A DNA stretch of 57,404 bases from Deltaproteobacteria bacterium RIFCSPHIGHO2_02_FULL_43_33 (GTDB lineage: Bacteria > Desulfobacterota > GWC2-55-46 > UBA9637), in NCBI GenBank assembly GCA_001798165.1, contig MGRL01000004.1, positions 1,922 to 59,325 on the forward strand, written 5' to 3'. The notes under the pieces were generated by a model, which saw only the letters and a list, made by a program, of their open reading frames with translations, was not told the origin of the DNA and did no database searches. The position numbers and the translations under genes are program-made. Below are positions 4,071 to 52,746 of this stretch, in pieces. The stretch's first letter is position 1, and each line of letters opens with the position of its first letter.

Positions 4071-4100
4071 AATTTTAAAATCTTTATCGGCAAAACAAAT

Positions 4101-4783: not shown

Positions 4784-4960
4784 GTCTGAAGTAAGATATG
4801 TGTTTGCCGCATTTCAGTAGTAAGGTTTGGTTGTGTTTTTCAACCCAACGATTTCTTGCTATTGTGTTTAGCGAAGTTCAACCCAACTACAACCATTCAG
4901 TGGGTGTAAAAATAGAATTATAAAATCCGTCTTTATTATAAGAGCGGCAAGGAGAAATCA

Positions 4961-6196
4961 ATGGCCTTAATAGTCCAAAAATACGGCGGCACATCTGTCG
5001 GCAATGTGGAGAGGATTAGAAATGTTGCCATAAGGGTTGCACAGACAAAAAAGAAAGGCCATAAGGTTATTGTGGTTGTGTCTGCCATGTCAGGAGAGAC
5101 TAATAAACTTGTGGACCTTGCAAACCAGACAAAGGAATTTCCCATTGGCAGGGAATATGATGTGGTTGTGTCGACCGGCGAGCAGGTTACCATCGGACTT
5201 CTATCTCTTGCGCTTCAGGATTTGGGTTTTGGCGCAAAATCATTTCTTGGCTATCAGGTGCCGATTATAACTGACAATGCATTCAGCAAGGCAAGGATTG
5301 AAGAGATAGAGACGGCTAATATATTTTCTGAACTTAAAAAAGGAAATATAGTTGTGGTTGCAGGTTTTCAGGGTGTGGACAGAAACGGCAACATAACAAC
5401 CCTTGGCAGAGGCGGCTCTGATACAACCGCTGTAGCATTAGCAGCAGCATTAAAGGCAGATGTGTGCGAGATATATACAGATGTAGAAGGCGTATATACA
5501 ACAGATCCGAATATATGCCCTGATGCAAGGAAGCTAAAAAAGGTCTCTTATGACGAGATGCTGGAAATGGCAAGTCTCGGCGCAAAGGTTTTACAGACAA
5601 GGTCTGTTGAATTTGCAAAGAAGTATAATGTCCCTGTGATGGTGAAATCATCATTTACCGATGCCGAAGGCACGCTTGTTACAAAGGAGGATAAATCTAT
5701 GGAAAAGGTGATTGTCTCTGGTGTTACTTATAATAAGGATGAGGCAAAGATAACTATTGCGAGAGTGCCTGACAGGCCTGGGATTGCAGCAAAGCTCTTT
5801 GCCCCGCTTACCAAGGCAAATATAAATGTTGATATGATTGTCCAGAATGTAAGTCATGACACTTACACAGATTTGACATTCACGGTATCAAAGGCTGATT
5901 TTAAGAAGGCATTGCAGCTTGTAGAAAAGACTGCAAAGGTGATAAAGGCAGGGAAGGTGCTTTCTGACACGAGCATCGCAAAGGTATCCATTGTAGGCGC
6001 AGGCATGAGGAGCCATGCAGGCGTTGCATCCAAGATGTTTGAGACTATGGCAAAGGAAGGGATAAACATCCAGATGATTTCAACATCTGAAATAAAAATT
6101 TCTGCAGTAATAGATATAAAATATACAGAGCTTGCAGTGAGGGTTTTGCATAAGGCATTTGAGTTGGGCAAGGAAGAGGTAACGGAGGAGAAGTGA
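4961..6196 (+). CDS. lysC: aspartate kinase
   Basis: N-terminal VQKYGGTSV. Kinase core followed by two ACT-like C-terminal repeats. Confidence 0.92.
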
Positions 6197-7851: not shown

Positions 7852-8035
7852 GCTTTGATTTTTGGGGAAACCTGCAAGTTGCCTGCCAGACGAGGCAGAG
7901 GCCATTTTTGCGACGAGCCGTATATCACCAATACGGTGAGGAGCAAAAATGCGCCGATAACGAAGTATGGCAGGCATCCGCCTAAGGCGGACGCAGGTTT
8001 GTAAAATAGCGAGGTTTTTAATCGCTATTTTACGG
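7841..8035 (+). repeat. ~195-nt structured repeat, copy A (rod-like nested helices plus terminal hairpins)
   Basis: Near-identical to the rc of 17350-17532, apart from an extra CCGCCTAAGGCGG hairpin (7978-7990). Nested pairings: 7868-7875/7993-8000, 7879-7887/7969-7976, 7903-7911/7943-7951, 7918-7923/7931-7936. 5' hairpin at 7841-7866 and 3' hairpin at 8001-8033. Confidence 0.85.
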
Positions 8036-11411: not shown

Positions 11412-11983
11412 GAAACAGGAGTCAGAAGCTTGCCCCCGCAGGCTTTAAGCGGGGGTCAGGAGTCGGAAGTCAGAAGTTTTTATTTTGTATTCTGTATTCT
11501 ATATTCTGTATTCTGCCTTCATGCGGCTATCACATTGCCGGCAAAGGCGGGAGTATGCCTGGCAATGTAGCAACCATAACTATTCCATTTCTGAAAAATC
11601 AGACCCAAAAGCCTGATGTTGAAACTATTGTTACGACTGCATTGGTTGATGAATTTGTAAAGAGCGGGATTGTAAAGGTTGTTGAAGAAAATGCTGATGC
11701 AGTGATTAGCGGCGCTGTAACAAGTTATGACTTAACCCCTGTTTCTTTTAACAAGAACGATGTAATTCAAGAATACAGGCTTACCATTAAAATAGAGGTA
11801 AGCCTTGTGCGGAAAAGTGATGGGAAGATCGTATGGCAAGATAAAAATATTACTGACTATGAGGATTTTAAGGTAACTACCACGGATATCAATGCGACCA
11901 AAACAGCAGAATTGGACGCGGTGAAGAAGATGGCAAAGGATACGGCAAGATTAATTAAGGAAAGAATTTTAGAGGATTTTTAA
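11408..11983 (+). CDS. lptE: LPS-assembly lipoprotein LptE (RlpB)
   Basis: Lipobox ILPS-C-G followed by an LptE-like body. Classic leuS-lptE-holA synteny. ATGA overlap with the leuS stop. Confidence 0.8.
11417..11514 (+). repeat. composite element: hairpin core 11429-11455, heptamers GTCAGGA GTCGGAA GTCAGAA (11455-11475), then GTATTCT x4 (11487-11514)
   Basis: Direct reading. It lies wholly inside the lptE 5' coding region. Confidence 0.85.
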
Positions 11984-17349: not shown

Positions 17350-17532
17350 CCGTAAAATAGCGATTAAAAATCTCGCTATTTTACAAACCTGCGATTTGCC
17401 TGCCATACTTCGTTATCGGCGCATTTTTGCTCCTCACCGTATTGGTGATATACGGCTCGTCGCAAAAATGGCCTCTGCCTCGTCTGGCAGGCAACTTGCA
17501 GGTTTCCCCAAAAATCAAAGTCTATTTTTGGG
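17350..17532 (-). repeat. ~183-nt structured repeat, copy B (inverted relative to copy A)
   Basis: Its rc matches 7841-8035 almost base for base. Terminal hairpin 17352-17363/17373-17384. Confidence 0.85.
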
Positions 17533-18830: not shown

Positions 18831-19664
18831 GTGTCGGCTGGTTTCTATAACCACAGGGAAGTGGAAAAGGGTTTTGGCACAACGGTCATAATTTCTCTTT
18901 GCCTGCACATTATTTCCTTAGGTATTCTCCTTTTGTTTTCAAATAACAACGTATTACATCTGTTTACAGCGCCTGTTTATACCGTTGATCTTATTGGACA
19001 GCTGCCGGCAGAAAGGCCAATAGAGACATCTTTAAAGCCTGAAAAGCCAGAGGCTGTAATCCCAAAGGCCGCCTCAAAACCTGCTGTCAAGGAAAAGGCT
19101 ATTCCTCTGAAAAAGGAAAAGGAGGCATCTATAGATGAAGCGTTAAAAAAGATAAGAGAGCAGGTAAAGAAGAGGGAAGAAAGCGAGGCAGTCAATAAGG
19201 CAATCCGGAAACTGGAAGATAAGCAGTTGGAAAAAAAGATAAAAGAGATACGAGAGAGGGTTGTTCATAAGGAAGATATTGTGAGGCCGGTTAAGCCTGC
19301 CCCCGAGAGTATTAATCGGGGAACCAAAGCAGAAGGCAGGGAATTATCAGAGAGAGGGGCTGCGATAATGCGGGTTAAGGAGATAGAAGAAAAATATGCC
19401 CAGCTTATAGGCGATGTAATTCATGATACATGGAATTATGGAGGCGATTTTAGGGAAGGTGAAGCTGCGGTGATAGCTGTGCGCATAGATAAGACAGGCC
19501 GCCTCATTGAAAGCCATATCGAACAATCATCGGTTAATATAATGCTTGTCCAATCTGCTGTCAGGGCAATAGAAAGGGCAGCCCCGTTATTTCCGCCGTT
19601 TCCCAAGGAGTTAGAAAAGGATTTTGTAGAGATTGGCGTCTGTTTCCCTGGATGTAAAAGATAA
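18831..19664 (+). CDS. tolA: TolA/TonB-like energy transducer
   Basis: N-terminal TM helix, K/E-rich linker and a TonB_C-like C-terminus. Located between tolR and tolB. Confidence 0.75.
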   Translation: MSAGFYNHREVEKGFGTTVIISLCLHIISLGILLLFSNNNVLHLFTAPVYTVDLIGQLPAERPIETSLKPEKPEAVIPKAASKPAVKEKAIPLKKEKEASIDEALKKIREQVKKREESEAVNKAIRKLEDKQLEKKIKEIRERVVHKEDIVRPVKPAPESINRGTKAEGRELSERGAAIMRVKEIEEKYAQLIGDVIHDTWNYGGDFREGEAAVIAVRIDKTGRLIESHIEQSSVNIMLVQSAVRAIERAAPLFPPFPKELEKDFVEIGVCFPGCKR

Positions 19665-23873: not shown

Positions 23874-24815
23874 ATGAAAACAGAAAGTCATCAGAAGTCG
23901 GGAGTCAGGGGACTGCCCCCGAATGCATCTATCGGGGGTCAGAAGCAGGTATGCAGTAGTCGGTATGCAGTATGCAGCAAAAACTTTGCCTGTCTGTTGA
24001 TGTTCACTATTTACTGCTCACTGTTTACTGTCTTGATGGGTTGCGGCATAAACAAGGATATTTATCAAAAGACAGTAGAAGAGTCTGAGGCAAGGAAGGC
24101 AGGCTTAGCAGAGGCTCAAAAACAGATTACAGCGCTCCAGGACGAAAATCAGCAATTAAAGTCTAAGACAGATGAGTTGGCAAAGCAGGCTGCTGATGCG
24201 GATGCTGTAACGAAAGAAAGAGAAGAGCTTGCAAGCAAAAATGAGTATATGAATAGGGAATTGGAGAGGTTAAAAGTAAAGGCAGGCGAGCTCAGCGCTG
24301 AAAAGGAAAAGGAGCTGGCAGGCGTAAAAAACACCTATGAGAAGCTCATCAGTGAAATGGAACAGGAAATAAAAAAAGGGGATATAAAGATTACTCAGGC
24401 TGTTGACAGGCTGTCTGTGAATATGGTGGAGAAGATACTCTTTGACTCAGGAAAGGCAGAGATAAAGCCGGAAGGCCTGAAAGTGCTTGACAGGGTAGGG
24501 GCAATATTAAAAGGCATAACTGACAAACAGATAAGGATAGAAGGGCATACAGACAATGTGAAGATAGGCTCTAAGATAAAAGAAAAATATCCAACAAACT
24601 GGGAGTTGTCTACTGCAAGGGCAACCAGCGTTGTGCGGTATCTTCAGGATAAGGTTGGTATAGATCCCCGACATTTGTCTGCTATTGGCTATTCAGAGTA
24701 TAAACCGATTGCCGGCAATGATACTACAGAGGGCAGGGCGCTGAACAGAAGGATGGAGATAGTGCTTCTGCCTCTGGATTTGGGGAGTGTGGTAGAGGAG
24801 TTGAAGAAGAAGTAG
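23874..24815 (+). CDS. OmpA/MotB-domain lipoprotein with a coiled coil
   Basis: AAGGAGG 6 nt before the ATG. Lipobox LMGCG. C-terminal OmpA_C (RIEGHTDN...NRRMEIVLLP). Confidence 0.85.
   Translation: MKTESHQKSGVRGLPPNASIGGQKQVCSSRYAVCSKNFACLLMFTIYCSLFTVLMGCGINKDIYQKTVEESEARKAGLAEAQKQITALQDENQQLKSKTDELAKQAADADAVTKEREELASKNEYMNRELERLKVKAGELSAEKEKELAGVKNTYEKLISEMEQEIKKGDIKITQAVDRLSVNMVEKILFDSGKAEIKPEGLKVLDRVGAILKGITDKQIRIEGHTDNVKIGSKIKEKYPTNWELSTARATSVVRYLQDKVGIDPRHLSAIGYSEYKPIAGNDTTEGRALNRRMEIVLLPLDLGSVVEELKKK
23885..24030 (+). repeat. composite element: degenerate GTC heptamers, hairpin core 23912-23937, GTATGCA-type heptamers (23949-23976), TTCACTA/TTTACTG heptamers (24003-24030)
   Basis: Direct reading. 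Lies inside the 5' coding region of the OmpA-like gene. Confidence 0.85.
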
Positions 24816-26166: not shown

Positions 26167-27309
26167 ATGAAGGTATCATTATTAAATCTTAAGCTCCAGT
26201 ATCAGGGCATAAGAGAAGAGGTGTTAAAAGAGATTGAAAAGGTTTGCGATAATCAGTCATTTATACTTGGGGAAAATGTTGCTGGGCTGGAAAAGGAGAT
26301 AGCTCAGTATTGCAATACAAAATATGCTGTTGGCGTCGCCTCCGGAACAGACGCCATATTATTGCCGCTTATGGCTGTCGGCATCGGCGCCGGAGACAGG
26401 GTTATTACAACGCCGTATACATTCTTTGCCACAACAGGCTCTATTGTGCGGCTGAATGCAGTTCCGGTTTTTGTTGATATAGAACCGGATACATATAATA
26501 TTGACCCGAACAAATTGGAGTATATTATAAAAAAACAGACTGCGGCGCAAAGGGCGCGGCTCAAGGCCATTATCCCTGTTCATCTTTACGGCCAGTGCGC
26601 TGAAATGGAGCCAATTCTAAAAATAAGCAAGAAACATAAACTCACTGTGATTGAAGATGCGGCACAAACCATTGGCGCAGAATATAAAGGGAAGAGGGCA
26701 GGCTCTATGGGTGATTTTGGGAGCCTTTCATTCTATCCTTCAAAGAATCTTGGCGGTTTTGGAGACGGCGGCATGGTGACTACGAATAGCGAAAAACTGG
26801 CGGAAAAGGTCAGAATCTTGAGGGTGCACGGGAGCAAGCCAAAATACTATCATAAGTTTGTAGGCATAAACAGCAGGCTGGATGAGATACAGGCTGCGGT
26901 ATTAAGGATAAAATTAAAACATCTCGCAACATGGGAAAATAATAGAATGGCAGGAGCGGAGAGATATAACAAACTCTTTCAGGATGTAAGTCTTCCGAAC
27001 GCAGTTTCTCTTCCGGCAGCACGGCCATATAATCGCCATGTGTTCAATCAATATATTATCAGGGTTAAAAAACGGGATGCCTTAAGAGAGTATCTTGCCA
27101 AAGAATGCATAGGCACAGAAATATATTATCCTGTTCCATTGCACTTGCAAGAGTGTTTCAGATACCTTGGATATAAAAAAGGAGATTTTCCAGTATCTGA
27201 AAAGGCAGCCAAGGAGACTCTGGCGCTGCCTATCTATCCTGAACTTACACCGGAAGAGCAGGAATATGTAGTTAGCAAGATTGCTGAATTTTATAAGAAA
27301 ACAAGTTGA
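26167..27309 (+). CDS. DegT/DnrJ/EryC1/StrS-family PLP-dependent sugar aminotransferase
   Basis: GTDAILLPL, EDAAQTIGA and SFYPSKNLGGFGDGG (PLP lysine). AAGGAGG 9 nt before ATG 26167. Confidence 0.9.
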   Translation: MKVSLLNLKLQYQGIREEVLKEIEKVCDNQSFILGENVAGLEKEIAQYCNTKYAVGVASGTDAILLPLMAVGIGAGDRVITTPYTFFATTGSIVRLNAVPVFVDIEPDTYNIDPNKLEYIIKKQTAAQRARLKAIIPVHLYGQCAEMEPILKISKKHKLTVIEDAAQTIGAEYKGKRAGSMGDFGSLSFYPSKNLGGFGDGGMVTTNSEKLAEKVRILRVHGSKPKYYHKFVGINSRLDEIQAAVLRIKLKHLATWENNRMAGAERYNKLFQDVSLPNAVSLPAARPYNRHVFNQYIIRVKKRDALREYLAKECIGTEIYYPVPLHLQECFRYLGYKKGDFPVSEKAAKETLALPIYPELTPEEQEYVVSKIAEFYKKTS

Positions 27310-27379
27310 TGATTTGTCAAATGCGATTCAACATCCATCCGTGTTTTTTACCCATTATCAGAAATGTTTGCCAGAATAT

Positions 27380-27408
27380 TTGACTAAGGTCAAAAAAGAT
27401 GGTAAGTT
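27380..27408 (+). promoter_or_regulatory. sigma70-like promoter candidate for ATPase gene 1 (TTGACT, 17 nt, TAAGTT)
   Basis: The -10 ends 6 nt before ATG 27415 and no SD is present, so a leaderless mRNA is possible. Confidence 0.3.
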
Positions 27409-27414
27409 GTTTTC

Positions 27415-28593
27415 ATGAAAAAAAGGTACCTTGTCCCGCATATTCTACGCGATATTAATGAAAAGATGGTTTTCATCGGTGGTGCCAGGCAGGTTGGGAA
27501 GACGAGCCTGGCAAGGTATGTTGCCGAAAAATATTTCAAGTCATACGATTATCTGAACTGGGATGCGCGGGATGATAGAAAGAATATTTTACAGTCACAG
27601 TTTAAAGGTAATGCCGAGATTATCCTGTTCGATGAAATACACAAGTACAAGGACTGGAAGAGTTATCTCAAGGGGCAGTTTGATAAGCATAAAGATGATT
27701 TCAAGATTCTTGTGACTGGAAGCGCAAGGCTGGATGTATACAGGCGGGGTGGAGATTCGCTTATGGGAAGGTACTACTACTATCGCCTTCATCCCTTCAG
27801 CCTTGCGGAGTTTCTTGAAAAGGAGAATGAAATTGTTCCATTCAAAGGAATAGTCTTTCAGGAGTCAGGGAAGGAGACAAAAGAGACGTTAGAGGTTGCG
27901 TTGAAATTTGGCGGGTTCCCTGAGCCGATGCTTAAGCAGAGCGAAAAGGGACTGAGGAGATGGCATAACCAGAGGGTTGAAAGGTTGGTGAGGGAGGATA
28001 TTAGGGATTTGGAGAATATCAGGGAACTGTCGCTTCTTCAGGTCCTTGTTGACATTCTTCCCGGCAAGGTCGGCTCCCTTCTGTCCCTCAACTCTTTGAG
28101 GGAAGACCTTTCTGTGGCTCATAAGACTGTAGCACACTGGGTGGATATTCTTGAGAGGTTTTATTATCATTTCAGGATTTACCCCTTTCATCATAAAAAA
28201 ATAAGGTCTCTGAAAAAGGAGCCTAAGTTGTATCTATGGGATTGGTCTGAGGTTCCTGATGAAAGAGGCGCCAGACTGGAGAATATAGTCGCCTCCCACC
28301 TGCTCAAGATGTGTCATTTTCTGAATGATGTGGAGGGATTCAAGACCGACCTCCATTTTTTGAGGGATATAGAAGGACGGGAGGTTGATTTCCTAGTTAC
28401 TGAAAACGGTAAGCCGTGGTTTGCTGTGGAGGTTAAGTCCAATTCCAGAGAGGTCTCAAAAAACCTGCTCTATTTTGGAGACAGGTTGGATATTCCCTTT
28501 CTGTATCATGTCGTCTCTGAAGAGAATGTCGACATAAGGAAGGATAAAGTGAGGATTATAAGCCTGGATAGATTTATGGTTTCACTTGTGTAA
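27415..28593 (+). CDS. AAA-type ATPase with a C-terminal PD-(D/E)XK-like nuclease motif (COG1373/DUF4143-type architecture)
   Basis: Walker A GGARQVGKTS and Walker B IILFDEIH. C-terminal REVDFLV, about 11 aa, then AVEVKS (D...ExK). Confidence 0.8.
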   Translation: MKKRYLVPHILRDINEKMVFIGGARQVGKTSLARYVAEKYFKSYDYLNWDARDDRKNILQSQFKGNAEIILFDEIHKYKDWKSYLKGQFDKHKDDFKILVTGSARLDVYRRGGDSLMGRYYYYRLHPFSLAEFLEKENEIVPFKGIVFQESGKETKETLEVALKFGGFPEPMLKQSEKGLRRWHNQRVERLVREDIRDLENIRELSLLQVLVDILPGKVGSLLSLNSLREDLSVAHKTVAHWVDILERFYYHFRIYPFHHKKIRSLKKEPKLYLWDWSEVPDERGARLENIVASHLLKMCHFLNDVEGFKTDLHFLRDIEGREVDFLVTENGKPWFAVEVKSNSREVSKNLLYFGDRLDIPFLYHVVSEENVDIRKDKVRIISLDRFMVSLV

Positions 28594-28624
28594 AATAGCG
28601 AGGTTTTTAATCGCTATTTTACGG
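28590..28624. repeat. 35-nt hairpin GTAAAATAGCGAGGTTTTTAATCGCTATTTTACGG, solo copy
   Basis: Identical to 8001-8035 and one mismatch from the rc of 17350-17384. Contains the ATPase stop codon (28591-28593). Confidence 0.9.
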
Positions 28625-28705
28625 TAGATGAAAGGCTGTACTCTCCAGCATGATAGTCACAACCTTTATTGTTGCGGTTTTTCGGACATAAAGCGCCCCC
28701 CTTTG

Positions 28706-28847
28706 CTTGGATATAAAAAAGGGCGATTTCCCAGTGTCTGAAAAGGCAGCCAAGGAAACTCTGGCACTGCCGATTTATCCCGAACTTACACCGGAAGAGC
28801 AGGAGTATGTGGTTAGCAAACTTGTTGAATTTTATAAGAAAATTTAA
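28706..28847 (+). pseudogene. orphan 3' fragment (last ~47 codons) of a DegT-family aminotransferase
   Basis: Aligns to 27166-27309 at roughly 90% identity by hand count. There is a 1-nt indel at its 5' edge and no start codon. Confidence 0.85.
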
Positions 28848-28990
28848 CAAACGCTTATGGATATTTTTGTGAACGCAAAACCTGTTAAGGTTGACTTTTT
28901 CAAATATTGTGCTAAAGATTACCGCACATAATAAACGGCAGTGATTTCAAAATTCAGGAGATGATATGGTTACACTGATTTTAAGAAGCA

Positions 28991-29060
28991 GATTACACAG
29001 ATTTGGACGGGAAGGTTGGTTTTTAATCTGTGCAATCGTTTTTTCAGAATCTGTGTAATC
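28991..29060. repeat. cluster of GATTACACAGAT motifs (28991-29002 forward; 29026-29037 variant and 29049-29060 reverse)
   Basis: Direct reading. The same 12-mer cluster recurs at 53714-53891. Confidence 0.85.
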
Positions 29061-29081
29061 AATTTATTCATAGGAGGGTGC

Positions 29082-29657
29082 ATGATAAAAGATATTGACC
29101 GTTATTTTTCAGAACTTGGGGGTCTATTTTTAAAGACGCAAATTACTGATAAAGACAATAAAGCTATTGATTTTGCCGACGCGGTGGGGAATGCCATAAA
29201 TTTAATTGCCTCCCTGACTTCAAAAGGCTGCAAGGTTATATTTATAGGCAACGGCGGCAGCGCCTCTATTGCGAGCCATCAGGCAATAGACTTTTTTAAA
29301 AACGGCGGCATGCGCGCAATCGCCTTTAACGATTCATCTCTTTTAACCTGCCTGAGCAATGATTTCGGCTATGAATATGTGTTTGAAAAACCGATTGAGA
29401 TGTTTGCCGGTAAAGGGGATGTATTGATGGCAATAAGCAGTTCAGGCAAATCTGAAAACATATTGCGCGGTGTTGATGCAGGCAAAAGAACCGGTTGCCA
29501 TATAATCACCATGTCGGGCTTTAAACCGGACAATCCCCTACGGAGCAGAGGAGAACTGAATTTCTATGTTCCGTCAGATTCCTACGGCTATGTAGAGATT
29601 ACTCACCTTACCCTTTGTCACTGTATGGTGGATACTATTGTAGCCAAAAAGAAATAA
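29082..29657 (+). CDS. gmhA: SIS-domain phosphoheptose isomerase (GmhA-like)
   Basis: GNGGSASIASH and SSSGKSENI motifs. GGAGGG precedes ATG 29082. The ORF opens at 29016. Confidence 0.8.
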   Translation: MIKDIDRYFSELGGLFLKTQITDKDNKAIDFADAVGNAINLIASLTSKGCKVIFIGNGGSASIASHQAIDFFKNGGMRAIAFNDSSLLTCLSNDFGYEYVFEKPIEMFAGKGDVLMAISSSGKSENILRGVDAGKRTGCHIITMSGFKPDNPLRSRGELNFYVPSDSYGYVEITHLTLCHCMVDTIVAKKK

Positions 29658-40559: not shown

Positions 40560-43421
40560 TTGATATCTCGACGCACCTTTCATCTATTAGTTCATCCGAT
40601 TGTCTTACCTATTTACCCTGCCATATTATTAATATTAATATATCATGAGGTTTTTATTTGCCGTACTGCAATTTTTACGCACGATACAGTCAATTGGTAT
40701 GCGAACTTCAATTATTTTGTGTCAAGCTTAGCTCAGGGTAGTTTGCCACTATGGGATCCGTATGCGTTTAGTGGAGCGCCATTCTATTTAAACGTCAATA
40801 TTGTAGGGGCATTGGACCCTACCGTGTTGCTTGCCGTACCTCTGATACGATTTTGGGATATCTCCATATTAGATATTTATAATATTCATTTTCTTGTTCG
40901 TTTATTTATATTTTATTTAGGATCGTATGCATTATTTTGTTATATCTCTCGTAATTATTGGGCTTCTTTGCTGGGTGCAATATTTACTTTATACACTAGT
41001 GCCCCCAATGCTTTTTGGCAGCATGGTTCAATGATTATGATAACATATGTTCCACTTATCATCCTGTTTTTACTTCAATTTGTGTCACCTGAAACTCCTA
41101 AAAAATCGAAAGGCCTGATTTTTATTGCGCTATGCTACCTTATTGGTATTTCATTCAACATATATTTGCCAAGCTATTTGTTAATGTATTTGAGTTTCAT
41201 TCTTATCTATCTTTTTATAGCGAGGTTTATAGGACTTAAATCTATTCGTGATATCGTTATTTCAGCAGGAGTATGGAAGTTGCTAATAGGAATTCTTGTG
41301 TTTTTTATTGTAGCGGGCCCCTTTATTGTTTCTACCTTTAAAATATTGCCAAGCCTTTCAGAAAATTTCAGTCTTACACGGTTTGATATACCTAATAACA
41401 GTAGTAATTCGGAGATAACAATTCATTCTTATCCGCTGAAATTAAATGAATCTGCTCCTTCCCGTTCTACTATATATAACTTGTTGAGTTTTTTGATACC
41501 TGGTACGGACACGGGATTTTTTGTGGAAAGCAGACCCCCCGGTTATACTGAGAATTTTTTGCCCTTTGCTGTGATTCCAGTAATGATAGTTTTCCTTTTT
41601 TTTAAACGGACGAATTCACATTACAAGGGATTATTTTTATTTGTTTTGATTATTACTGGCTTATATTGGCTTAGTCCAAATTTATTATACAGCCATATCT
41701 TGCGATATTTTCCGGGAGCCAGCACCATAAGACAAATGCATAATTTCTTGGGTTATTTTATTTTATCATTTGGTGCATTGTTAGCAATATGTTTATCAGA
41801 AGCCATAGCAGTAATATCTAATTCCAAGAATAGGCATAAGTTATCACCTATTGTTGTTGCTATATTTACACTGGCTTATATAGTTGCACTGTATGTATAT
41901 TGGCAACATATTAGAAATATGGAAATTGCTGGAACATTAGCAAGTCCAATATATAGATTGGCACTCCAAAATAATATTATTTCCAACGGATGGCAAGTAA
42001 TTATTATCTGCATGTTGATAACATTATATTTCTTTGCATCTTATAATTTTCGGATATACATTGCTATAACGATTGCGGGTATTATTATCTATGACTTGGT
42101 AGATTTTAATAGTAAATTTAAGACGTATACAATTCAGCCAAGCATTAGTATGAGTGAAGATTACATACACCATGATAGAGAATTCAAATATAATGAGATC
42201 CGGGTTCCTTTTGTTCCACGACATACAGTCTTTTGGGGTTATTTGCCATCACTTTATCGGATACCAACAGCCATTCCCGGCTATATGAATACATACATGT
42301 CGCTTACCCGCAGGGCTTATGATTTTATCCGTTTTACGTCCGCTGAAAGAAGTAAGATAGTTAGTGGTGTTGGTTCAAGGCGGTTTGGGTTTTTTGATAA
42401 GTATATCATGGCTAAAAATAGCAGAGATGCGTTAAATTTAGTTGCTGGAATGCCTAAGGAAAGCCTGCACGATGTAATAGTGCTTGAAGAAGACCCTATT
42501 CAAATAGTTTCAAAGCTCAAAGCTGTAGAACGCGTTGATAGAGATTCAAATTCTCCTGCTTTGCAAACGTTATCACAAATTCGTGAAGCTATGTTAAGTG
42601 GTAAAGGTCAGTATCTTGCGGATTTTTATGATAAAAGCGAATATATAAATTATAAAGACTATCCTCGTGCATCTGATGGATTTTTATATATTGCACTTTT
42701 AAGTAATCATCCGGCAAGAGATTGGCCCTGGGATAAAGAGCATATTGGATATTTTCATATTTTATTTGGAAATATTTATATTTCTTATTATTCGTTTATC
42801 CATGGATATCATACTAATCCTTCAATTAGGACTGACTTTAAAGAGGATAAAGTTTGCTATACGGATATTGAAGAATGGCAGATGAAGCATATTATGCCTG
42901 GTTTCTATGAACAGATATATAATAAATATCCTTACCAGTGCGATTTACAGAAAGTTGAAAGAGAATTGATAGTATCACCAGAACTGCAAGGTGCATTTGT
43001 TACAGATGATATAGGAAAACCAGAGAAGGATAATATAATTCCTGGCTTCACCGTTGTGAGTTTGGATCCGGCCAAGGTTTCACCAAGCCGTTCTCCTTAT
43101 GGCCGGGACGAGCCAACGGAAGTAATTGCCTTTGGACCAAACATGATTAGTTTTAAGGTACAAAACAGTAAACCTGGGCTATTTTACTATGCAGATTCCT
43201 ATTCCAGCGATTGGGAGGCAACGGTTTCCGGTTCTCCAGCTTATATTTTTAAAGCAAACTTTAATTATAAGGCGGTATTTGTTCCAGCTGGGAATCATAC
43301 CATAACTTTTTCATTCAACCCCAAGCTATATATTTTACTTTTTAAGATTTTCATTGTGGTTTCAATTTTACTGATGCCGGTTCCGGTTGTTGCTCTTTTA
43401 TTATACGCTAAGAAGAGGTAA
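40560..43421 (+). CDS. YfhO-like GT-C membrane protein paralogue 3
   Basis: THDTVNWYANF...GSLPLWDPYAFSGAPFY and C-terminal YADSYSSDWEATVSGSPAYIFKANFNYKAVFVPAGNHTITFSFNP. TTG start is uncertain. Confidence 0.65.
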   Translation: MISRRTFHLLVHPIVLPIYPAILLILIYHEVFICRTAIFTHDTVNWYANFNYFVSSLAQGSLPLWDPYAFSGAPFYLNVNIVGALDPTVLLAVPLIRFWDISILDIYNIHFLVRLFIFYLGSYALFCYISRNYWASLLGAIFTLYTSAPNAFWQHGSMIMITYVPLIILFLLQFVSPETPKKSKGLIFIALCYLIGISFNIYLPSYLLMYLSFILIYLFIARFIGLKSIRDIVISAGVWKLLIGILVFFIVAGPFIVSTFKILPSLSENFSLTRFDIPNNSSNSEITIHSYPLKLNESAPSRSTIYNLLSFLIPGTDTGFFVESRPPGYTENFLPFAVIPVMIVFLFFKRTNSHYKGLFLFVLIITGLYWLSPNLLYSHILRYFPGASTIRQMHNFLGYFILSFGALLAICLSEAIAVISNSKNRHKLSPIVVAIFTLAYIVALYVYWQHIRNMEIAGTLASPIYRLALQNNIISNGWQVIIICMLITLYFFASYNFRIYIAITIAGIIIYDLVDFNSKFKTYTIQPSISMSEDYIHHDREFKYNEIRVPFVPRHTVFWGYLPSLYRIPTAIPGYMNTYMSLTRRAYDFIRFTSAERSKIVSGVGSRRFGFFDKYIMAKNSRDALNLVAGMPKESLHDVIVLEEDPIQIVSKLKAVERVDRDSNSPALQTLSQIREAMLSGKGQYLADFYDKSEYINYKDYPRASDGFLYIALLSNHPARDWPWDKEHIGYFHILFGNIYISYYSFIHGYHTNPSIRTDFKEDKVCYTDIEEWQMKHIMPGFYEQIYNKYPYQCDLQKVERELIVSPELQGAFVTDDIGKPEKDNIIPGFTVVSLDPAKVSPSRSPYGRDEPTEVIAFGPNMISFKVQNSKPGLFYYADSYSSDWEATVSGSPAYIFKANFNYKAVFVPAGNHTITFSFNPKLYILLFKIFIVVSILLMPVPVVALLLYAKKR

Positions 43422-43431: not shown

Positions 43432-46269
43432 GTGAGGTCGCAGATTTTTTACCGTATTCTTCGTCATCCCATCGTTCTTCCAATTTATCCAGCCAGTGTA
43501 CTAATACTTTTATACCAGAATGTCTTTATAAAGCAAGAGGCTATCTTTACCCACGATACCATTCATTGGTATGCTAACTTCAACTATTTTATGCTCTGCC
43601 TGACACGCGGAATCCTTCCACTATGGGACCCATATAGTTGGTCTGGAGCGCCTTTCTATCTAAATCACAATGCTGTTGGGACGCTAGACCCAACTGTACT
43701 AACAATGATACCACTGATAAAGTATTGGAATGTTTCTGTATTGGACATTTACCACATACATTTTCTATTACGGTTGCTAGTTTTTTATATAGGTGCCTAT
43801 GCACTTTTTCGGTATATCTCTCGGAATGATTGGGCTGCCTTGATAGGGTCAACAATTGTTTTGTTTGTCATGGCGCCAAACTCGTTTTGGCAGCATGGTT
43901 CTATGCTAATTGTAACTTATGCACCATTGATAATACTTTTTCTGCTCAATCTAATCTCACCAAGCACTTCCTCTAAATCAAAAGGTTTGTTTTTTATAGC
44001 TTCATGTTATTTGTTTGGTCTCTCATTCAATATGTACCTCCCAAGTTATATAATTATCTATTTAAGCTTGATGTTTATTTATCTTTTTGTGAATAGAACA
44101 CTTAATATTTACAAACTTCGTAAAATAACAAGAGTTATAGGAATCTCTAATATACTTGCAGGAATACTTATATTCTTAATTATGGCTGGTCCATTTATTT
44201 ATTCTACGGTTAAGTTAATGTCAAAAGTTGATGAGAACTTTGCCTATGGTAGATATGCCCGTCTTGGAGAACCACCCACATCAGATACACTGATACATAC
44301 TGCGGAATTGTCTTTAACGGAGGATAGTTATAGAGATCGTTCAACATTTCATAATCTTTTAGCGATATTATTTCCTGGTCCAGACATAAGGTTTTTCATA
44401 GAAAGTGCTTTAGCACGTGAAAACTTTCTTTTTTTTGGGTTGATACCAATAATCCTTGTTTTTCTTTTTTTCAAACGCGCTCAATCACCAAATAAGGGAC
44501 TTTTTCTGTTTCTTATTATTGCTATTGGTTTATATATGTTCAGCCCTCCTTCTTGGTATAATAAAATATTGCAATACTATCCGACTGCCAGGACGATTAC
44601 GCAGTTGCATAACTTTTTAGGTTTTTTTATTTTATCATGGGGCGCTTTAATAGCTATTTGCTTTTCTACTGTTCTTGATATGATAACCCATAAAAGCAGA
44701 ACAGAGAGGGTTTCCTTAATCTGGCTTGCGATTTTGGCAATAGCTCAAATATTGGTAATTTTCTTATACTTCAGCTTTGTTCATACCGAACTAATAGAAC
44801 GTTCACTAAGCAATAATTTCTTAATATGGATACAAGAATCTATTGTAGCACATGGATGGTTGTTAATTATTTCATACTTTATAGTTGCGTTATTTTTGTT
44901 ACATAAATCTTCTTTGTTTCGATTTTTTCTTATAGTAGTTATGGTAGGACTTACATTCTATCAATTGGTAGAGTTTAATATTAACCTCCAACGTTATGTC
45001 ATCCAGCCAGGTGAGATTGCACGTACTGGGTATATCCATTATGACAGGGAATTTAGCTATAAACCAATACGTATTCCTTTTGTATCCAGGCATACTACCT
45101 TTTGGGGATTCCTCCCCTCCCTTTACCGTATTCCGGCAGCCATCCCGGCCTATTTTAATGACTATTTTGTTGTAGGTCGCCGAAGCTATGATTTTATTCG
45201 TTTCGTTTCTGCAGAACGACAGAAGATTGTTAGTGGCATCGGGGCAAGACGATTTGGTTTTTTTGATAAGTTTACTGTGGCTAAAGACAGTATCCACGCG
45301 CTATCTCTTATGAGCCGCATGCCTACAGATATGTTGCATGAGACTTTGGTGTTGGAGGATGATATTGCAAAAGTTTTCCCTCAGGCAAGGGCAATTGAGC
45401 GTGTCGATGTTGATACAATACCGATCTCCGCTGATGTAGAGCGTGGTAGTAGTCAATATTTAGCTGATTTCTATGACCGTATGGAAAGAATTGATTACAA
45501 AACTCCAAATACACGTAAGGTGAAAGGTTATTTGGAGATTGACATCCCACAGCAGCATCCTATTTTGGATTGGCCATGGGATATAAAGCATATTGGATAT
45601 TTTCAAATTATGTTTGGCCCTTTTCAATCAGTGTCTTCATACAATCCCATGAGGTACTATCCTAACCCAGGTATTCGTACCAATGTTGGCAGAGACTACA
45701 TTTGTTATATTGACTTTCAGGAATGGTTGGTAAAACACGCTATGCCTGGTTTCTATGAACCGATATACAATAAATATCCTTATCAGTGCGATTTACAAAA
45801 AGTTGACAAAGATTTGATAGTATCACCAGAACTGCAAGGTGCCTTTGTTACAGATGACATAGGAGGACCAGAGAAGGATAATATAATCCCCGGGTTTACC
45901 GTTGTGAGCTTAGATCCGGCCAGGGTTTCACCAAACCGTTCTCCATATGGCCGGGACGAGCCAACGGAAGTGATTGCGTTTGGGCCTAACATGATTAGTT
46001 TTAGGGTACAAAACAGCAAGCCGGGACTGTTTTATTATGCTGATTCATATTCCAAAGATTGGAAGGCAACAGTTTCCGGTTCCCCTACCTATATCTTTAA
46101 AGCAAACTTTAATTATAAGGCGGTATTTGTTCCGGCTGGGAATCATACCATAACTTTTTCATTCAACCCCAAGCTATATATTTTACTTTTTAAGATTTTC
46201 ATTGTGGTTTCAATTTTACTGATGCCTGTTCCGATTGTCGCCCTTTTATATTCTAAGGAAAGAAAATAA
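43432..46269 (+). CDS. YfhO-like GT-C membrane protein paralogue 4 (tandem duplicate of paralogue 3)
   Basis: Collinear with paralogue 3. GTG 43432 is preferred (VRSQIFYRILRHPIVLPIYP parallels MISRRTFHLLVHPIVLPIYP). The ORF opens at 43387. Confidence 0.65.
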   Translation: MRSQIFYRILRHPIVLPIYPASVLILLYQNVFIKQEAIFTHDTIHWYANFNYFMLCLTRGILPLWDPYSWSGAPFYLNHNAVGTLDPTVLTMIPLIKYWNVSVLDIYHIHFLLRLLVFYIGAYALFRYISRNDWAALIGSTIVLFVMAPNSFWQHGSMLIVTYAPLIILFLLNLISPSTSSKSKGLFFIASCYLFGLSFNMYLPSYIIIYLSLMFIYLFVNRTLNIYKLRKITRVIGISNILAGILIFLIMAGPFIYSTVKLMSKVDENFAYGRYARLGEPPTSDTLIHTAELSLTEDSYRDRSTFHNLLAILFPGPDIRFFIESALARENFLFFGLIPIILVFLFFKRAQSPNKGLFLFLIIAIGLYMFSPPSWYNKILQYYPTARTITQLHNFLGFFILSWGALIAICFSTVLDMITHKSRTERVSLIWLAILAIAQILVIFLYFSFVHTELIERSLSNNFLIWIQESIVAHGWLLIISYFIVALFLLHKSSLFRFFLIVVMVGLTFYQLVEFNINLQRYVIQPGEIARTGYIHYDREFSYKPIRIPFVSRHTTFWGFLPSLYRIPAAIPAYFNDYFVVGRRSYDFIRFVSAERQKIVSGIGARRFGFFDKFTVAKDSIHALSLMSRMPTDMLHETLVLEDDIAKVFPQARAIERVDVDTIPISADVERGSSQYLADFYDRMERIDYKTPNTRKVKGYLEIDIPQQHPILDWPWDIKHIGYFQIMFGPFQSVSSYNPMRYYPNPGIRTNVGRDYICYIDFQEWLVKHAMPGFYEPIYNKYPYQCDLQKVDKDLIVSPELQGAFVTDDIGGPEKDNIIPGFTVVSLDPARVSPNRSPYGRDEPTEVIAFGPNMISFRVQNSKPGLFYYADSYSKDWKATVSGSPTYIFKANFNYKAVFVPAGNHTITFSFNPKLYILLFKIFIVVSILLMPVPIVALLYSKERK

Positions 46270-51420: not shown

Positions 51421-51493
51421 CAGCCCATGACTTTTATGCAGCATAGCGCATTTAGGTCTTGACTTTTATGAAGTTTAGTGCAAAATAGTCTGC

Positions 51494-52641: not shown

Positions 52642-52668
52642 CCCCCCGATAGAACCTTCGAGGGCAGG
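52642..52668 (-). repeat. hairpin core of the CCTGCCCTCGA..TATCGGGGG family (reverse orientation)
   Basis: The rc reads CCTGCCCTCGAAGGTTCTATCGGGGGG; compare 7797-7823. Confidence 0.8.
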
Positions 52669-52746
52669 TTTATCTTGCGGATATATTCGATTCAGGCAGC
52701 GCTGTGGACAAACTATATACAATAAGAAAAGAAGGACTCATATAAT

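Follow-up and report, generated by a model that had tools for sequence, protein, structure and literature searches.

Prophages e14 and phage 21 in icd, like islands at tRNA genes, insert themselves within a gene end, for which they bring a replacement. Nobusato et al. in 2000 reportedly described another mode, in which restriction-modification gene units insert with long target duplication. Such insertions of restriction-modification units were also treated by Furuta, Abe and Kobayashi (2010; PMC2853133), and they are the closest known phenomenon to the arrangement described below. The very abundant AAA_14/DUF4143 family is the PADLOC defence candidate PDC-S01, and has candidate status only. 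In PDC-S01 an ATPase is fused to a PD-(D/E)XK domain (PMC12988326), and one representative gave no protection against T4, T5 and T7 (bioRxiv 10.1101/2024.09.26.614923). A literature search on the PDC-S01/AAA_14/DUF4143 family returned no description of it as mobile or as flanked by gene-end duplicates. The 57,404-nt stretch of DNA analysed here (the window) contains two genes of this family, each located between an intact neighbouring gene and a displaced copy of that gene's end.

Insertion sites in the window

At site 1, a 392-aa ATPase-nuclease gene interrupts a hypervariable polysaccharide locus: it is inserted between two genes of sugar synthesis, at the DegT|gmhA junction. Its status as an insertion follows from the existence of empty sites: in L020 and L021, DegT is followed after 68 nt by gmhA, the arrangement that the original prediction had proposed to look for. 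The reported order of intact DegT gene, ATPase gene and displaced DegT 3' end was found with every feature in place:

26167-27309, + strand: intact DegT/DnrJ/EryC1-family aminotransferase gene (Pfam PF01041, E=4.9e-120)
27166-27309, + strand: repeat copy 1, the functional DegT 3' end (last ~47 codons), inside the full-length ORF
27332-27414, + strand: 5' part of the cassette (homology to the cassette in other contexts starts at 27332/27344)
27415-28593, + strand: AAA_14/DUF4143 (COG1373; PADLOC PDC-S01) gene, 392 aa (Pfam AAA_14, 5e-27; DUF4143, 1.5e-26)
28591-28626, no strand: REP-like palindrome, 34 nt (GTAAAATAGCGA-loop-TCGCTATTTTAC), absent from L015
28627-28705, + strand: 3' flank of the inserted segment, read from the sequences
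28706-28847, + strand: repeat copy 2, the displaced DegT 3' end, 46 codons plus stop
29082-29657, + strand: SIS-domain (gmhA-like) gene (Pfam SIS_2)

DegT, the resident gene whose 3' end is duplicated, has orthologues with 78-86% protein identity and the same synteny in L019-L029. Copy 2 lacks the upstream gene body. The whole arrangement is identical in six further independent assemblies and is therefore not an assembly artefact. In the 3' flank (28627-28705), the initial ~20 nt are common to the L015 cassette, and the remainder is a spacer that stops at a sharp junction, ...CCCCCCTTTG|CTTGG.

The two DegT ends (27166-27301 and 28706-28842) align over 137 columns with 89.8% identity (blastn, E=7e-46). 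The expected single 1-nt indel at the 5' edge is present as an additional G in copy 2, with a +1 frameshift near 28721-28723 and the first five codons out of frame. In register, 12 changes are synonymous and in third position, and 2 are non-synonymous (I->L, A->V); the mostly synonymous character of the divergence thus stands, while the earlier count of 10 synonymous among 12 substitutions does not. Their C-termini are unlike (KKTS* vs KKI*), and dS and dN are 0.65 and 0.02 (NG86). Each tail has its closest relative in the other (89% identity, vs at most 80% to other lineages). Local duplication followed by decay was rejected at this site by a synonymous-bias test (p=2e-4).

The mirror-image footprint noticed earlier at 51.1-53.0 kb (site 2) is a 302-nt repeat flanking the second AAA_14/DUF4143 gene:

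51094-51395, + strand: repeat copy A, the displaced 5' end of a GSU2086-family gene
51494-52615, + strand: second AAA_14/DUF4143 (PDC-S01) gene, 42% identical to the first
52708-53009, + strand: repeat copy B, the intact gene's own functional 5' end
52747-53697, + strand: intact 316-aa gene

Copy A comprises 39 nt of upstream sequence and 88 codons of the GSU2086-family gene, is still linked by an ATGA overlap to a 184-aa gene and continues as a 95-aa ORF (51133-51420). Ahead of copy B lie ~40 nt with homology to the end of the 184-aa gene. Site 2 is empty in L187 and L188, where a 186/188-aa gene abuts the GSU2086-family gene. The repeat copies (51094-51395 vs 52708-53009) are 80.5% identical over 302 nt, with dS 0.97 and dN 0.09, and local duplication with decay was rejected here as well (p=9e-5). 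The nearest sequence to copy B is the ATPase-adjacent head of L183 (84.8%), and the body of the 316-aa gene matches the empty-site alleles best (88-90%, with 79% to L183). The ancestry breakpoint coincides with the repeat boundary; the informative sites inside the repeat do not resolve a clean crossover point.

These comparisons show that one repeat copy is of foreign origin. The synonymous bias, which rejects duplication and decay at both sites, supports the earlier proposal that the copies evolved within working genes of different lineages. No integrase or transposase was found across the window, as had been noted before, and no tRNA or Rfam RNA.

The ATPase-nuclease and its cassette

Three parts are predicted in the 392-aa protein, namely the AAA+ ATPase, a helical middle region and, at the C-terminus, a PD-(D/E)XK nuclease domain, with the motifs GGARQVGKTS, IILFDEIH and EVDFLV...VEVKS and putative nuclease residues D325, E339 and K341. 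It matches PADLOC PDC-S01 with E=2e-52, and the PDC-S01 model matches of both window proteins range from E=1e-52 to 1e-56. The AAA+ part resembles ORC/Cdc6/RFC/Hda. A structural model of the C-terminal domain (pLDDT 85.5) recovers the suspected nuclease fold, consistent with the PD-(D/E)XK assignment published for this domain (PMC3424549); its top structural matches are McrC, Cdn1, Bax1, EcoT38I, BbvCI and Card1, the single best being McrC in the McrBC complex (6ut7_G). Omega is 0.08 for the 392-aa gene (vs the L007 allele) and 0.10 for the second ATPase gene (vs L183).

The promoter-like pair reported upstream of the 392-aa gene is present: a -35 element TTGACT (27380-27385), a 17-nt spacer and TGG plus a -10 element TAAGTT (27403-27408), conserved in relatives L007-L015. 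A strict consensus scan did not call this promoter, because its -10 fits only 3/6 positions. A Shine-Dalgarno sequence is absent, and since only 6 nt separate the -10 from the ATG, the implied mRNA would be leaderless or near-leaderless. The second ATPase gene has a similarly placed promoter, TTGACT-16-CAAAAT (51459-51486), which ends 7 nt before its ATG. Promoters abutting the ATG were found in 20 of 75 family members vs 7 of 322 control ORFs (p=1e-10). Palindromes in the cassette 5' part, GTCAnAAATnTT / AATATTTGAC and TTGACTAAGGTCAA (27380-27393), look like putative operators.

The stop codon of the 392-aa gene does lie in a hairpin, but the hairpin is a separate 34-nt insertion, missing from L015 and foreign to the original cassette. 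The REP-like palindrome is inserted at TA/GTA in the stop codon, changing TAG to TAA; L015 lacks it (GTG TAG ATGAAAGG) and reads GTGTAGATGAAAGG at this position. Exact or near-exact copies occur at 8000-8035 and 17351-17386, and the motif AAAATAGNGA is found 7 times where 1.45 occurrences are expected. L007 and L191 carry a related palindrome at the same position.

Mobility in relatives and flanking repeats in the family

Comparison with relatives shows that the cassette moves independently of its flanks. The L007 and L015 cassettes are 99.1% identical over 1252 nt in different contexts, compared with 82% for a flanking fragment that both share. The ATPase gene has a dS of 0.47 between the window and L007, and the neighbouring gmhA one of 0.92. 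L182 departs from the window solely in a patch of 23 substitutions within the ATPase gene, suggestive of gene conversion.

Fragments of neighbouring genes also travel with the cassette (L008, L010, L194). In L010 and L194, the ATPase gene and 232 nt from the 5' end of gmhA are fused to a PGM 3' end of 498 nt, which L007 has upstream of the ATPase gene; this layout is a circular permutation. The upstream side of L010 ends at the contig edge, where an intact PGM copy is presumed. L193, a contig assembled at k=141 whose ends overlap exactly over 141 nt, corresponds to a circle or tandem of 2,029 nt that includes the ATPase gene; no other short unit-length contig had a terminal overlap. Head-to-tail junctions, circular or tandem, occur in relatives, and no circle or donor combining the cassette with the DegT end was observed.

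In a 92% sister lineage, the cassette adjoins a Y1_Tnp gene of 221 aa with 22-nt REP-like sequences in inverted orientation on either side, and a related palindrome follows the ATPase stop codon. The L193 join lies exactly within that palindrome and leads to the REP upstream of the Y1 gene. Since the L193 circle contains the Y1 transposase-like gene, HUH chemistry may have produced it.

Flanking repeats were surveyed in 80 genome loci of the AAA_14/DUF4143 family, with 243 other genes as controls. Straddling repeats of at least 30 nt were found for 19/80 family genes vs 12/243 others (OR 6.0, p=5e-6), and 13/80 vs 5/243 had one copy within 80 nt of the 3' end (OR 9.2); these counts support the suspected enrichment of the family for flanking duplicates. 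Two repeat-flanked 'controls' of the first survey were further family members, one with the sister architecture ATPase_2/DUF234. In flanked members, the downstream copy starts 1-60 nt past the stop and the upstream copy stops 90-250 nt before the ATG. Some 75% of family members lack straddling repeats. Among other small cargoes, 1 of 9 had flanking repeats, and an MNT/HEPN cargo in relatives has the same footprint with no ATPase inside the repeats. The repeat copies of more distant family members show no synonymous bias in their differences, consistent with duplication of the target in situ and later decay. Since flanking duplicates are far commoner than for other genes, the family looks like mobile DNA without a recognisable transposase.

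Origin of the insertions and comparison with known systems

We give about an even chance to the reading that host homologous recombination brought the cassette and a foreign DegT end to site 1. The mobile unit is a self-contained ~1.3-kb cassette with its own promoter abutting the start codon and no recognisable recombinase encoded. DNA from a related lineage, comprising the cassette and the adjoining 137 nt of the donor DegT end, would have entered as a segment that was most likely circular, formed by excision or illegitimate end-joining. One Campbell-type crossover with the resident DegT end would therefore yield an intact DegT, the cassette and a second DegT end, the ends differing by lineage divergence. 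At site 2, the same event would have proceeded via the 5' 302 nt of the downstream gene. Both the circular intermediate at site 1 and the use of RecA-type recombination are presumed, and the ATPase-nuclease would be cargo (a defence-type or addiction-type gene) rather than a recombinase. Where the family enters new, non-homologous sites, its primary insertions would duplicate 30-170 nt of the target, the type called 'insertion with long target duplication'.

The Campbell model needs a donor in which the cassette already stands beside DegT, so the first insertion falls outside it.

The original prediction had read the locus as the footprint of an element that integrates into gene ends and brings a replacement end. 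The duplicates, the empty sites and the foreign end bear this out in part. Dedicated targeting of gene ends and a dedicated supply of replacement ends are not supported: boundaries vary, the MNT/HEPN cargo leaves the same footprint, and host recombination with a diverged lineage accounts equally well for the 'replacement end'. Nothing shows the ATPase-nuclease to be the catalyst of integration.

A possible but unlikely alternative is that each ATPase cassette first entered with an ordinary long target duplication in situ, its copies identical, and that the inner cluster (about 28.7-51.4 kb) was later replaced by homologous recombination with a diverged lineage, with displaced copy 2 and copy A as homology arms; the cluster, and not the ATPases, would then have brought in the foreign gene ends. 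Both displaced copies lie towards the inner low-GC cluster, and a single swap would give the same symmetry: outer intact gene, ATPase, fragment, cluster, fragment, ATPase, outer intact gene. Such a swap is also consistent with the GC content (36.3% in the inner region vs 42-43% outside), with genes just inside site 2 that are ~72% identical to L187/L188 vs 86-93% for outside genes, and with gene content downstream of DegT that varies by lineage. The L183/L192 lineage has its cluster bracketed by the same two ATPase types, and the non-synonymous-biased repeats of other family members resemble in-situ duplications. However, copy B, the outer copy attached to the intact gene, differs in ancestry from the gene body, which an inner-only swap does not predict; moreover, neighbour fragments move with the cassette itself, and the two repeat pairs are unequally diverged (89% vs 80%).

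It is rather improbable that the AAA+/PD-(D/E)XK protein is itself a mobility enzyme of an autonomous single-gene element, cutting gene ends with long variable staggers or promoting strand exchange to give the long duplications, although this would define a new, transposase-free class of mobile element. Repeat enrichment is family-specific and extends in one case to ATPase_2/DUF234, flanking repeats being found in just one of the nine other small cargoes; the repeat geometry recurs, with no other gene inside the repeats. The nuclease fold is nearest to McrC, which works with an AAA+ motor in cutting at variable distance. The portable leaderless promoter, the very wide phyletic spread at 55-77% identity and the lack of phage protection by the tested PDC-S01 protein (bioRxiv 10.1101/2024.09.26.614923) agree with such an element. 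Against it, terminal inverted repeats and conserved end sequences were not found, and the boundaries of the moving segment differ among events: they fall within the final two codons in L007, and the segment takes in gmhA or Y1 sequence in L010 and L193. The MNT/HEPN footprint without ATPase and the repeat-free majority of the family also speak against it.

Mobilisation in trans by a Y1 (HUH, IS200/RAYT-type) transposase via flanking REP-like hairpins is very unlikely, in spite of the linkage of cassette, Y1_Tnp and REP-like sequences in the 92% sister lineage, the L193 join inside the palindrome, and a window palindrome sharing the AAAATAGnGA motif and position. No Y1 gene was found in the window, to which the HUH route is thus inapplicable, or in any of the 80 survey loci, and the window cassette has one REP-like copy and none 5'. 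IS200/IS605-type transposition is not known to make a target duplication and so fails to explain the gene-end repeats. Finally, a relic of tandem DegT paralogues, the second mostly replaced by the ATPase gene through deletion, with an equivalent history at site 2, is scarcely credible: mostly synonymous differences in a displaced end are what one would expect of the remnant of a once-functional paralogue, but none of the 7 close DegT loci with listed ORFs has tandem DegT genes and two have DegT then gmhA directly, the DegT tails are mutually closest (89%), and the same coincidence would be required at site 2, where empty-site relatives exist, and in other phyla.

Host recombination of a carried gene end, the preferred reading, can be set beside several known systems. 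Both window proteins resemble PDC-S01 (AAA_14 + DUF4143; COG1373) in the fusion of an ATPase to a PD-(D/E)XK domain; that candidate, however, was defined by embedding in defence loci. McrBC likewise combines an AAA+ NTPase with a PD-(D/E)XK nuclease, whereas here both are in one polypeptide, the AAA+ part is nearer to ORC/Cdc6/RFC than to McrB, and the likeness is structural only, without a sequence-level relationship.

The icd prophages and tRNA islands share with site 1 the order of intact gene, foreign DNA and displaced end, and mainly synonymous differences. They span many kilobases, with a tyrosine or serine integrase and an att core, while the window inserts are 1.4-1.6 kb with one gene, no integrase and boundaries that vary by event. 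In Campbell-type integration of suicide plasmids, a 3'-terminal fragment gives an intact gene, the insert and a displaced 3' end, and a 5'-terminal fragment gives a displaced 5' end, the insert and an intact gene; the repeats differ by donor-recipient divergence, as at both window sites. This is a laboratory and plasmid paradigm, not the described natural life cycle of a single-gene cassette.

Long-target-duplication insertions of restriction-modification units are similar in being short units with a PD-(D/E)XK-type nuclease and no transposase or integrase, in having variable direct repeats >30 bp that far exceed transposon target duplications, and in having the repeat single at the empty locus of a related genome. 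In contrast, the cassette here is a single ATPase-nuclease gene with no methyltransferase. Its repeats, of 137 and 302 nt, are 89% and 80% identical and synonymous-biased, whereas those reported for restriction-modification units are near-identical (for example 44/46 and 47/47). The repeats at both window sites are ends of protein-coding neighbours, and an intact gene is therefore retained.

Gene-end repeats at two sites of the window

Two AAA_14/DUF4143 ATPase-nuclease genes lie in the window, each between two copies of one end of a neighbouring gene:

26167-27309, DegT/DnrJ/EryC1 aminotransferase gene, ending at 27309 (Pfam E=4.9e-120)
27415-28593, 392-aa ORF with AAA_14 and DUF4143 domains (Pfam)
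28706-28847, repeat of the last ~47 DegT codons (copy 2)
51094-51395, displaced 5' fragment (copy A) of the downstream 316-aa gene
51494-52615, ATPase2, a second AAA_14/DUF4143 gene, 42% identical to the first ATPase
52708-53009, copy B, heading the intact downstream 316-aa gene of the GSU2086 family

Sequence comparison, Pfam and blastn confirm the layout originally predicted (a DegT gene, an ATPase ORF and a second DegT end), and the mirror-image footprint announced near 51-53 kb proved to be a 302-nt repeat around the second AAA_14/DUF4143 gene. The site-1 repeat covers 137 columns with 89.8% identity (blastn E=7e-46). In register, the two DegT copies show 12 synonymous third-position changes, 2 conservative replacements (I->L, A->V) and differing last codons, which upholds the mostly synonymous divergence reported earlier and amends its count of 10 synonymous changes among 12. 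The tails end one codon apart, and an extra G at the 5' edge of copy 2 puts its first five codons out of frame. The synonymous and non-synonymous distances are dS 0.65 and dN 0.02 (NG86), and both tails have the same identity to other lineages. The longest identical run between them, 23 nt, is of the length expected from 89% identity alone, and no defined att core is recognisable. Copies A and B at site 2 are 80.5% identical across 302 nt (dS 0.97, dN 0.09). The site-1 arrangement is the same, base for base, in six further independent assemblies, which rules out an assembly artefact.

The predicted empty site was found in two related loci, L020 and L021 (79-82% nucleotide identity), where the order DUF362, DegT, gmhA, radical-SAM is kept without an ATPase gene and DegT is followed by gmhA after a gap of 68 nt. 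At site 2, the loci most similar in the gene body, L187 and L188, have a 186/188-aa gene abutting a 314/320-aa gene, also without an ATPase gene; in L187 the former type of gene and the GSU2086-family gene share an ATGA overlap. The ATPase cassette at both sites is an insertion.

Local duplication was evaluated with a null model in which the displaced copy is neutral and the functional copy changes at synonymous sites only. Non-synonymous changes are then expected to make up ~64-66% of the differences; the observed shares of 14% at site 1 (p=2e-4) and 38% at site 2 (p=9e-5) reject in-situ duplication followed by decay at both sites. Non-synonymous differences are too few, which places the divergence of the copies inside working genes of different lineages, as the original prediction had held. 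A pair of full-length tandem DegT genes, the second one largely replaced by the ATPase gene, had been named as a competing origin; it is absent from all 7 close DegT loci with listed ORFs.

The ATPase cassette and its product

Nucleotide homology between the first ATPase gene and those in other contexts extends from ~70-83 nt 5' of the ATG (27332/27344) to the stop codon or just beyond, and the same cassette was found at several different junctions in relatives. The cassettes of two such loci, L007 and L015, are 99.1% identical over 1252 nt in unrelated surroundings, with 82% identity in a short common flanking fragment, and their right junction falls in the last two codons (SLK* vs SLV*). Relative to L007, the window's ATPase gene has a synonymous divergence of 0.47, half that of the adjoining gmhA (0.92). 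Purifying selection on the ATPase gene is strong (omega 0.08), as it is on ATPase2 (0.10). In the related locus L182, the 1.7-kb site-1 region is identical to the window except for 23 substitutions clustered at 27429-27543 (~115 nt in the 5' part of the ATPase gene), probably a short imported conversion or recombination patch.

MAGs labelled Deltaproteobacteria, Omnitrophota, Smithella and Syntrophales encode close homologues (70-98% protein identity), and those with 55-77% identity come from CPR phyla, Nitrospirota, Spirochaetota, Elusimicrobiota and others. The viral collection contained no relatives, the phage database gave only four weak matches, in unannotated fecal contigs, and the 90 plasmid matches are distant and uninformative for this lineage.

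The promoter abuts the start codon of the ATPase gene: a -35 TTGACT, 17 nt, TGG-TAAGTT, 6 nt and the ATG, with no SD. The promoter-like TTGACT/TAAGTT of the original prediction is present, and a strict consensus scan called the promoter at site 2 and missed that at site 1. A full promoter abutting the ATG was found in 20/75 family genes and 7/322 control ORFs (p=1e-10); few family genes have an SD-like motif. Palindromes overlap the promoter, one of which, TTGACTAAGGTCAA, is a candidate autoregulatory binding site. We infer that the cassette is a leaderless, probably autoregulated, portable transcription unit.

Both window proteins match PF13173 and PF13635 (Pfam) and, over their full length, the PADLOC profile PDC-S01 (AAA_14-DUF4143, COG1373), at E=2e-52 and 2e-56. 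The Walker A and Walker B motifs and the residues D325, E339 and K341 are invariant. The N-terminal part models as an AAA+ fold, nearest to ORC/Cdc6, RFC and Hda; this module dominated the full-length fold search, and the C-terminal 143 residues were modelled separately (pLDDT 85.5). The resulting model has an alpha-beta-beta-beta-alpha-beta topology, with D325 on strand 2 and E339/K341 on strand 3, and its informative Foldseek matches are all PD-(D/E)XK proteins (McrC, Cdn1, Bax1, EcoT38I, BbvCI, Card1 and the HsdR nuclease domain), with modest top scores (E 1e-3 to 0.1, TM 0.4-0.5). A sequence search of the ATPase against PDB returned spurious LRR and methyltransferase matches only. PDC-S01 proteins number tens of thousands across Bacteria and Archaea, and we know of no function for them. 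The nuclease fold expected for the C-terminal domain agrees with the survey of PD-(D/E)XK proteins, where DUF4143 is family 100, of unknown function (PMC3424549). PDC-S01 has been described as ranking fourth in abundance among the defence candidates of prokaryotes, pending validation (PMC12988326). In the only published test of phage defence that was found, one representative did not protect against T4, T5 or T7 (bioRxiv 10.1101/2024.09.26.614923).

Route of insertion and neighbouring small insertions

Pieces of neighbouring genes accompany the cassette in several database contigs. In L008, a ~50-nt displaced 3' end of a transposase-like gene lies directly 5' of the cassette, and the parent gene is absent. 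Contigs L010 and L194 contain the cassette with 232 nt from the start of gmhA, and this segment is joined to a phosphomannomutase 3' end of 498 nt, which in L007 sits 5' of the cassette; L010/L194 are a circular permutation of L007 segment 1685-4469. Contig L193 (ENA ERZ27254767 k141_1064602), assembled by MEGAHIT at k=141, is 2,170 nt long and a permutation of 470-2496 of the related contig L191, and its ends overlap exactly by 141 nt. The exact terminal overlap together with the permutation identifies it as a 2,029-nt circle or a head-to-tail tandem. It comprises a REP-like sequence, a Y1 (HUH, IS200/RAYT-type) transposase-like gene, a second REP-like sequence, the ATPase gene and half a palindrome, the junction falling within the palindrome after the ATPase stop codon. 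Terminal overlaps were found in no unit-length contig besides L193, and several key contigs end at the cassette.

In the preferred account, which we infer for the window itself, a circle carrying the cassette and a piece of a neighbouring gene would integrate into that gene in a related genome by one homologous crossover. A 3' fragment on the circle would leave an intact gene, the cassette and a displaced end, as at site 1, and a 5' fragment would leave the mirror image, as at site 2.

The body of the window's site-2 gene shares 88-90% identity with the empty-site alleles and 79% with the occupied locus L183, whereas copy B (its first 88 codons, adjoining ATPase2) is 84.8% identical to the ATPase-adjacent head in L183 and 75-81% to the empty-site heads. 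This phylogenetic breakpoint coincides exactly with the repeat boundary; informative sites within the site-2 repeat were noisy and gave no clean switch that would place the crossover point. Alternatively, the inner cluster (29000-51000), with 36.3% GC against 42-43% outside, may have been replaced as a whole, with the displaced copies serving as homology arms. Such a swap would account for the symmetry of the two sites and for the identity discontinuity at site 2, but leaves the foreign ancestry of the outer copy B unexplained. Single-crossover integration of a circle is the preferred account, and with it the original reading of the footprint, an element that enters a gene end and brings a replacement, stands in part: there is an insertion with one foreign end, but the moving segment has no fixed ends, and MNT/HEPN cargo leaves the same footprint.

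The inner cluster encodes several very large YfhO-like membrane proteins, with tandem paralogues at 40592-43401 and 43464-46249 (67-84% identity). In a second lineage (L192, L185; contig Ga0209641_10000182), a cluster of ~41 kb is likewise enclosed by these two ATPase types.

The hairpin at the ATPase stop codon, recorded in the original prediction as 35 nt long and perfect, is present and is a separate insertion of 34 nt between duplicated TA/GTA, which changes TAG to TAA; the site is uninterrupted in L015. This palindrome behaves as a tiny insertion element. Copies of the 34-36-nt perfect palindrome TGTAAAATAGCGAGGTTTTTAATCGCTATTTTACGG are located as follows:

28591-28626, at the stop codon of the first ATPase gene
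8000-8035
17351-17386, reverse
1706-1740 of the related locus L019

The palindrome carries the motif AAAATAGnGA, which resembles the REP-like sequences that surround the Y1 gene of the sister lineage and at which the L193 junction falls. The Y1 gene is confined to the lineage of L007, L191, L193, L179, L181 and L029, and tblastn with the Y1 protein found none in the window or the 80 survey loci. IS200-type transposition makes no target duplications; with Y1 also missing from these sequences, the Y1/REP link is a lead and not an explanation.

Two copies of the palindrome terminate the arms of a 195-nt inverted repeat (7841-8035 / 17350-17532; 92% identity over the full length, 99% over a 136-nt arm). 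It brackets 9.4 kb with genes for ComEA-like HHH, LeuRS, LptE, DNA pol III delta, MurJ, MazG, MobA and MobB, a segment that could be invertible or once inverted. A dispersed repeat family of ~45 nt (...GCCTGCCCTCGAG...ATCGGGGG...) occurs at 7782-7826, 11414-11458, 19281-19325 and 23897-23941 and, reversed, at 52643-52668. The last copy lies just 3' of ATPase2, and another falls inside ORF 23874-24815, at the 5' end as annotated; this ORF probably begins further 3'. The motif GATTACACAGAT / ATCTGTGTAATC, direct and inverted (repeats D12, I8 and I9), is found at 28972-29079, 5' of gmhA, and at 53711-53894, around the PDDEXK_3 insertion, and may represent a regulator site or one more small repeat.

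Small accessory insertions occupy three consecutive gene junctions: ATPase2, a PDDEXK_3 gene and an MNT/HEPN pair. The PDDEXK_3 (PF13366) gene (53890-54258), encoding a 122-aa nuclease, lies in a 605-nt gap between the 316-aa gene and a cytidylyltransferase gene, which overlap or are at most 2 nt apart in all relatives (L183-L188). It is flanked by a 48-nt direct repeat (83%) with a stem-loop, at 53826-53873 and 54256-54303. The MNT (NTP_transf_2)/HEPN pair (54795-55543) separates the cytidylyltransferase gene from a PfkB/cytidylyltransferase (hldE-like) gene, where relatives have only 60-213 nt. Further toxin-type genes in the left part of the window encode a PIN domain (382-813, minus strand) and a HEPN domain (4101-4490, plus strand). 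Small accessory modules seem to have colonised the genome densely.

Frequency of the footprint and comparison with known systems

Whether partial duplicates of neighbouring genes generally flank the family was surveyed in 80 independent genome loci of relatives at >=45% identity. Family members were assigned by HMM, 1.2 kb on each side was searched for straddling direct repeats, ORFs were called mechanically, and other ORFs of at least 250 aa served for comparison.

Direct repeats around family members and other ORFs
Straddling repeat of at least 30 nt: family 19/80; other ORFs 12/243; odds ratio 6.0; p=5e-6
One copy within 80 nt of a gene 3' end: family 13/80; others 5/243; odds ratio 9.2; p=2e-5

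The HMM-based classification replaced a first-pass control set contaminated by family members and known mobile genes; its repeat-flanked 'controls' included two AAA_14/DUF4143 genes, one ATPase_2/DUF234 gene, an IS66 transposase and a DNA methylase. Because core genes predominate among the controls, the enrichment speaks for frequent recent insertion with duplication, not for causation by family members.

The geometry is recurrent, with the downstream copy beginning 1-60 nt past the stop codon and 90-250 nt separating the end of the upstream copy from the ATG. In survey loci L125, L138, L154 and L132 the 3' end of an ORF that precedes the gene in the same orientation forms the upstream copy. 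The substitutions there have no synonymous bias (synonymous/non-synonymous 7/8, 3/12, 3/2), as expected of target duplication in place followed by decay. Duplications vary from 30 to 300 nt, and repeat identity in other family members ranges from 72% to 99%. Members of the family thus often insert with long target duplications, and at the window's two sites there is an extra layer, one copy having been imported from another lineage. At least two HMM-matching ORFs are present in 8/80 loci. Three AAA_14/DUF4143 genes lie within 11 kb (3634-4926, 4992-6131 and 9569-10756) in L144, a Desulfobacteraceae MAG, two of them with their own flanking direct repeats (42 nt at 95%, 139 nt at 90%).

It seems improbable that these genes are autonomous single-gene elements, the ATPase-nuclease itself cutting long variable staggers or exchanging strands at gene ends. 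If true, this would establish a transposase-free and integrase-free class of mobile DNA and provide the mechanism that 'insertion with long target duplication' has long lacked. A role of the ATPase as recombinase is weakened by the lack of fixed ends in the moving segment and by the three quarters of family members with no detectable repeat. The DegT neighbourhood is moreover a hotspot, where other lineages hold toxin-antitoxin pairs, a 23S-IVS-type protein and transposase fragments, and the small insertions at three successive junctions to the right are absent from relatives. The same footprint (gene end, cargo, displaced gene end) also surrounds different cargo, an MNT/HEPN fusion gene in contigs L029 and L181, flanked by ~72-nt direct copies of the Y1 gene 3' end and its REP-like sequence with 91-93% identity:

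L029, 6991-7063 and 7945-8015
L181, 2281-2351 and 3232-3303

The repeat around the MNT/HEPN pair of L015 resembles a generic REP-type repeat and was left out as a target duplication.

Family members are carried on portable, probably leaderless and self-regulated cassettes that move between unrelated junctions with pieces of neighbouring genes, and long host gene-end duplications flank them about six times as often as other genes. This suggests that the family behaves as selfish mobile DNA, whatever its other roles. Being abundant and spread widely across phylogeny, it can serve as a test bed for 'insertion with long target duplication', which was reportedly described for restriction-modification systems in 2000 and for which, to our knowledge, there is as yet no mechanism. 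Defence predictions based on 'guilt-by-embedding' call for caution, as they can pick up mobile genes, and displaced gene-end fragments beside such genes are recombination scars rather than paralogue pseudogenes.

Pfam found no transposase or integrase among the 45 larger window ORFs, in agreement with the original prediction and with the empty Y1 search; no tyrosine or serine recombinase is encoded in the insert or the scanned window ORFs, and Rfam and tRNA scans of the window found nothing, including no tRNA or tmRNA gene. The cassette thus differs from integrase-mediated islands and prophages with a replacement end in having no recombinase, and it occurs at several junctions instead of a fixed tRNA or gene-end target. 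Unlike classical insertion sequences and transposons, it is bracketed by no inverted repeat, encodes no transposase and has duplications of 30-300 nt instead of short ones of fixed length. Mobilisation of the IS200/IS605-RAYT type is at odds with a REP-like palindrome at the 3' side only and with the long direct repeats. Free-standing homing endonuclease genes lie between host genes, spread when the empty allele is cut and repaired, and leave no flanking duplication, whereas both sites have one; homing-type co-conversion of flanks fits the foreign ancestry of copy B but leaves the retained displaced copy unexplained.

The nearest described counterpart is the insertion of restriction-modification units with long target duplication, defined by near-identical repeats >30 bp that occur once at the uninterrupted locus of a relative, an insert <20 kb, homologues of both restriction and modification genes and no mobile element (PMC2853133). 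The window agrees in its repeats of 137 nt and 302 nt, both >30 bp, in the single repeat at the empty loci L020/L021 and L187/L188, and in the ATPase gene as the only family-matched ORF between the repeats, without transposase or integrase. It differs in having a single AAA_14/DUF4143 gene and no methyltransferase, and in repeats that are 89.8% and 80.5% identical and synonymous-biased, not near-identical. A very abundant ATPase-nuclease family here behaves as a cassette that lacks a recombinase and has gene-end duplications that are long and in some cases heterologous.
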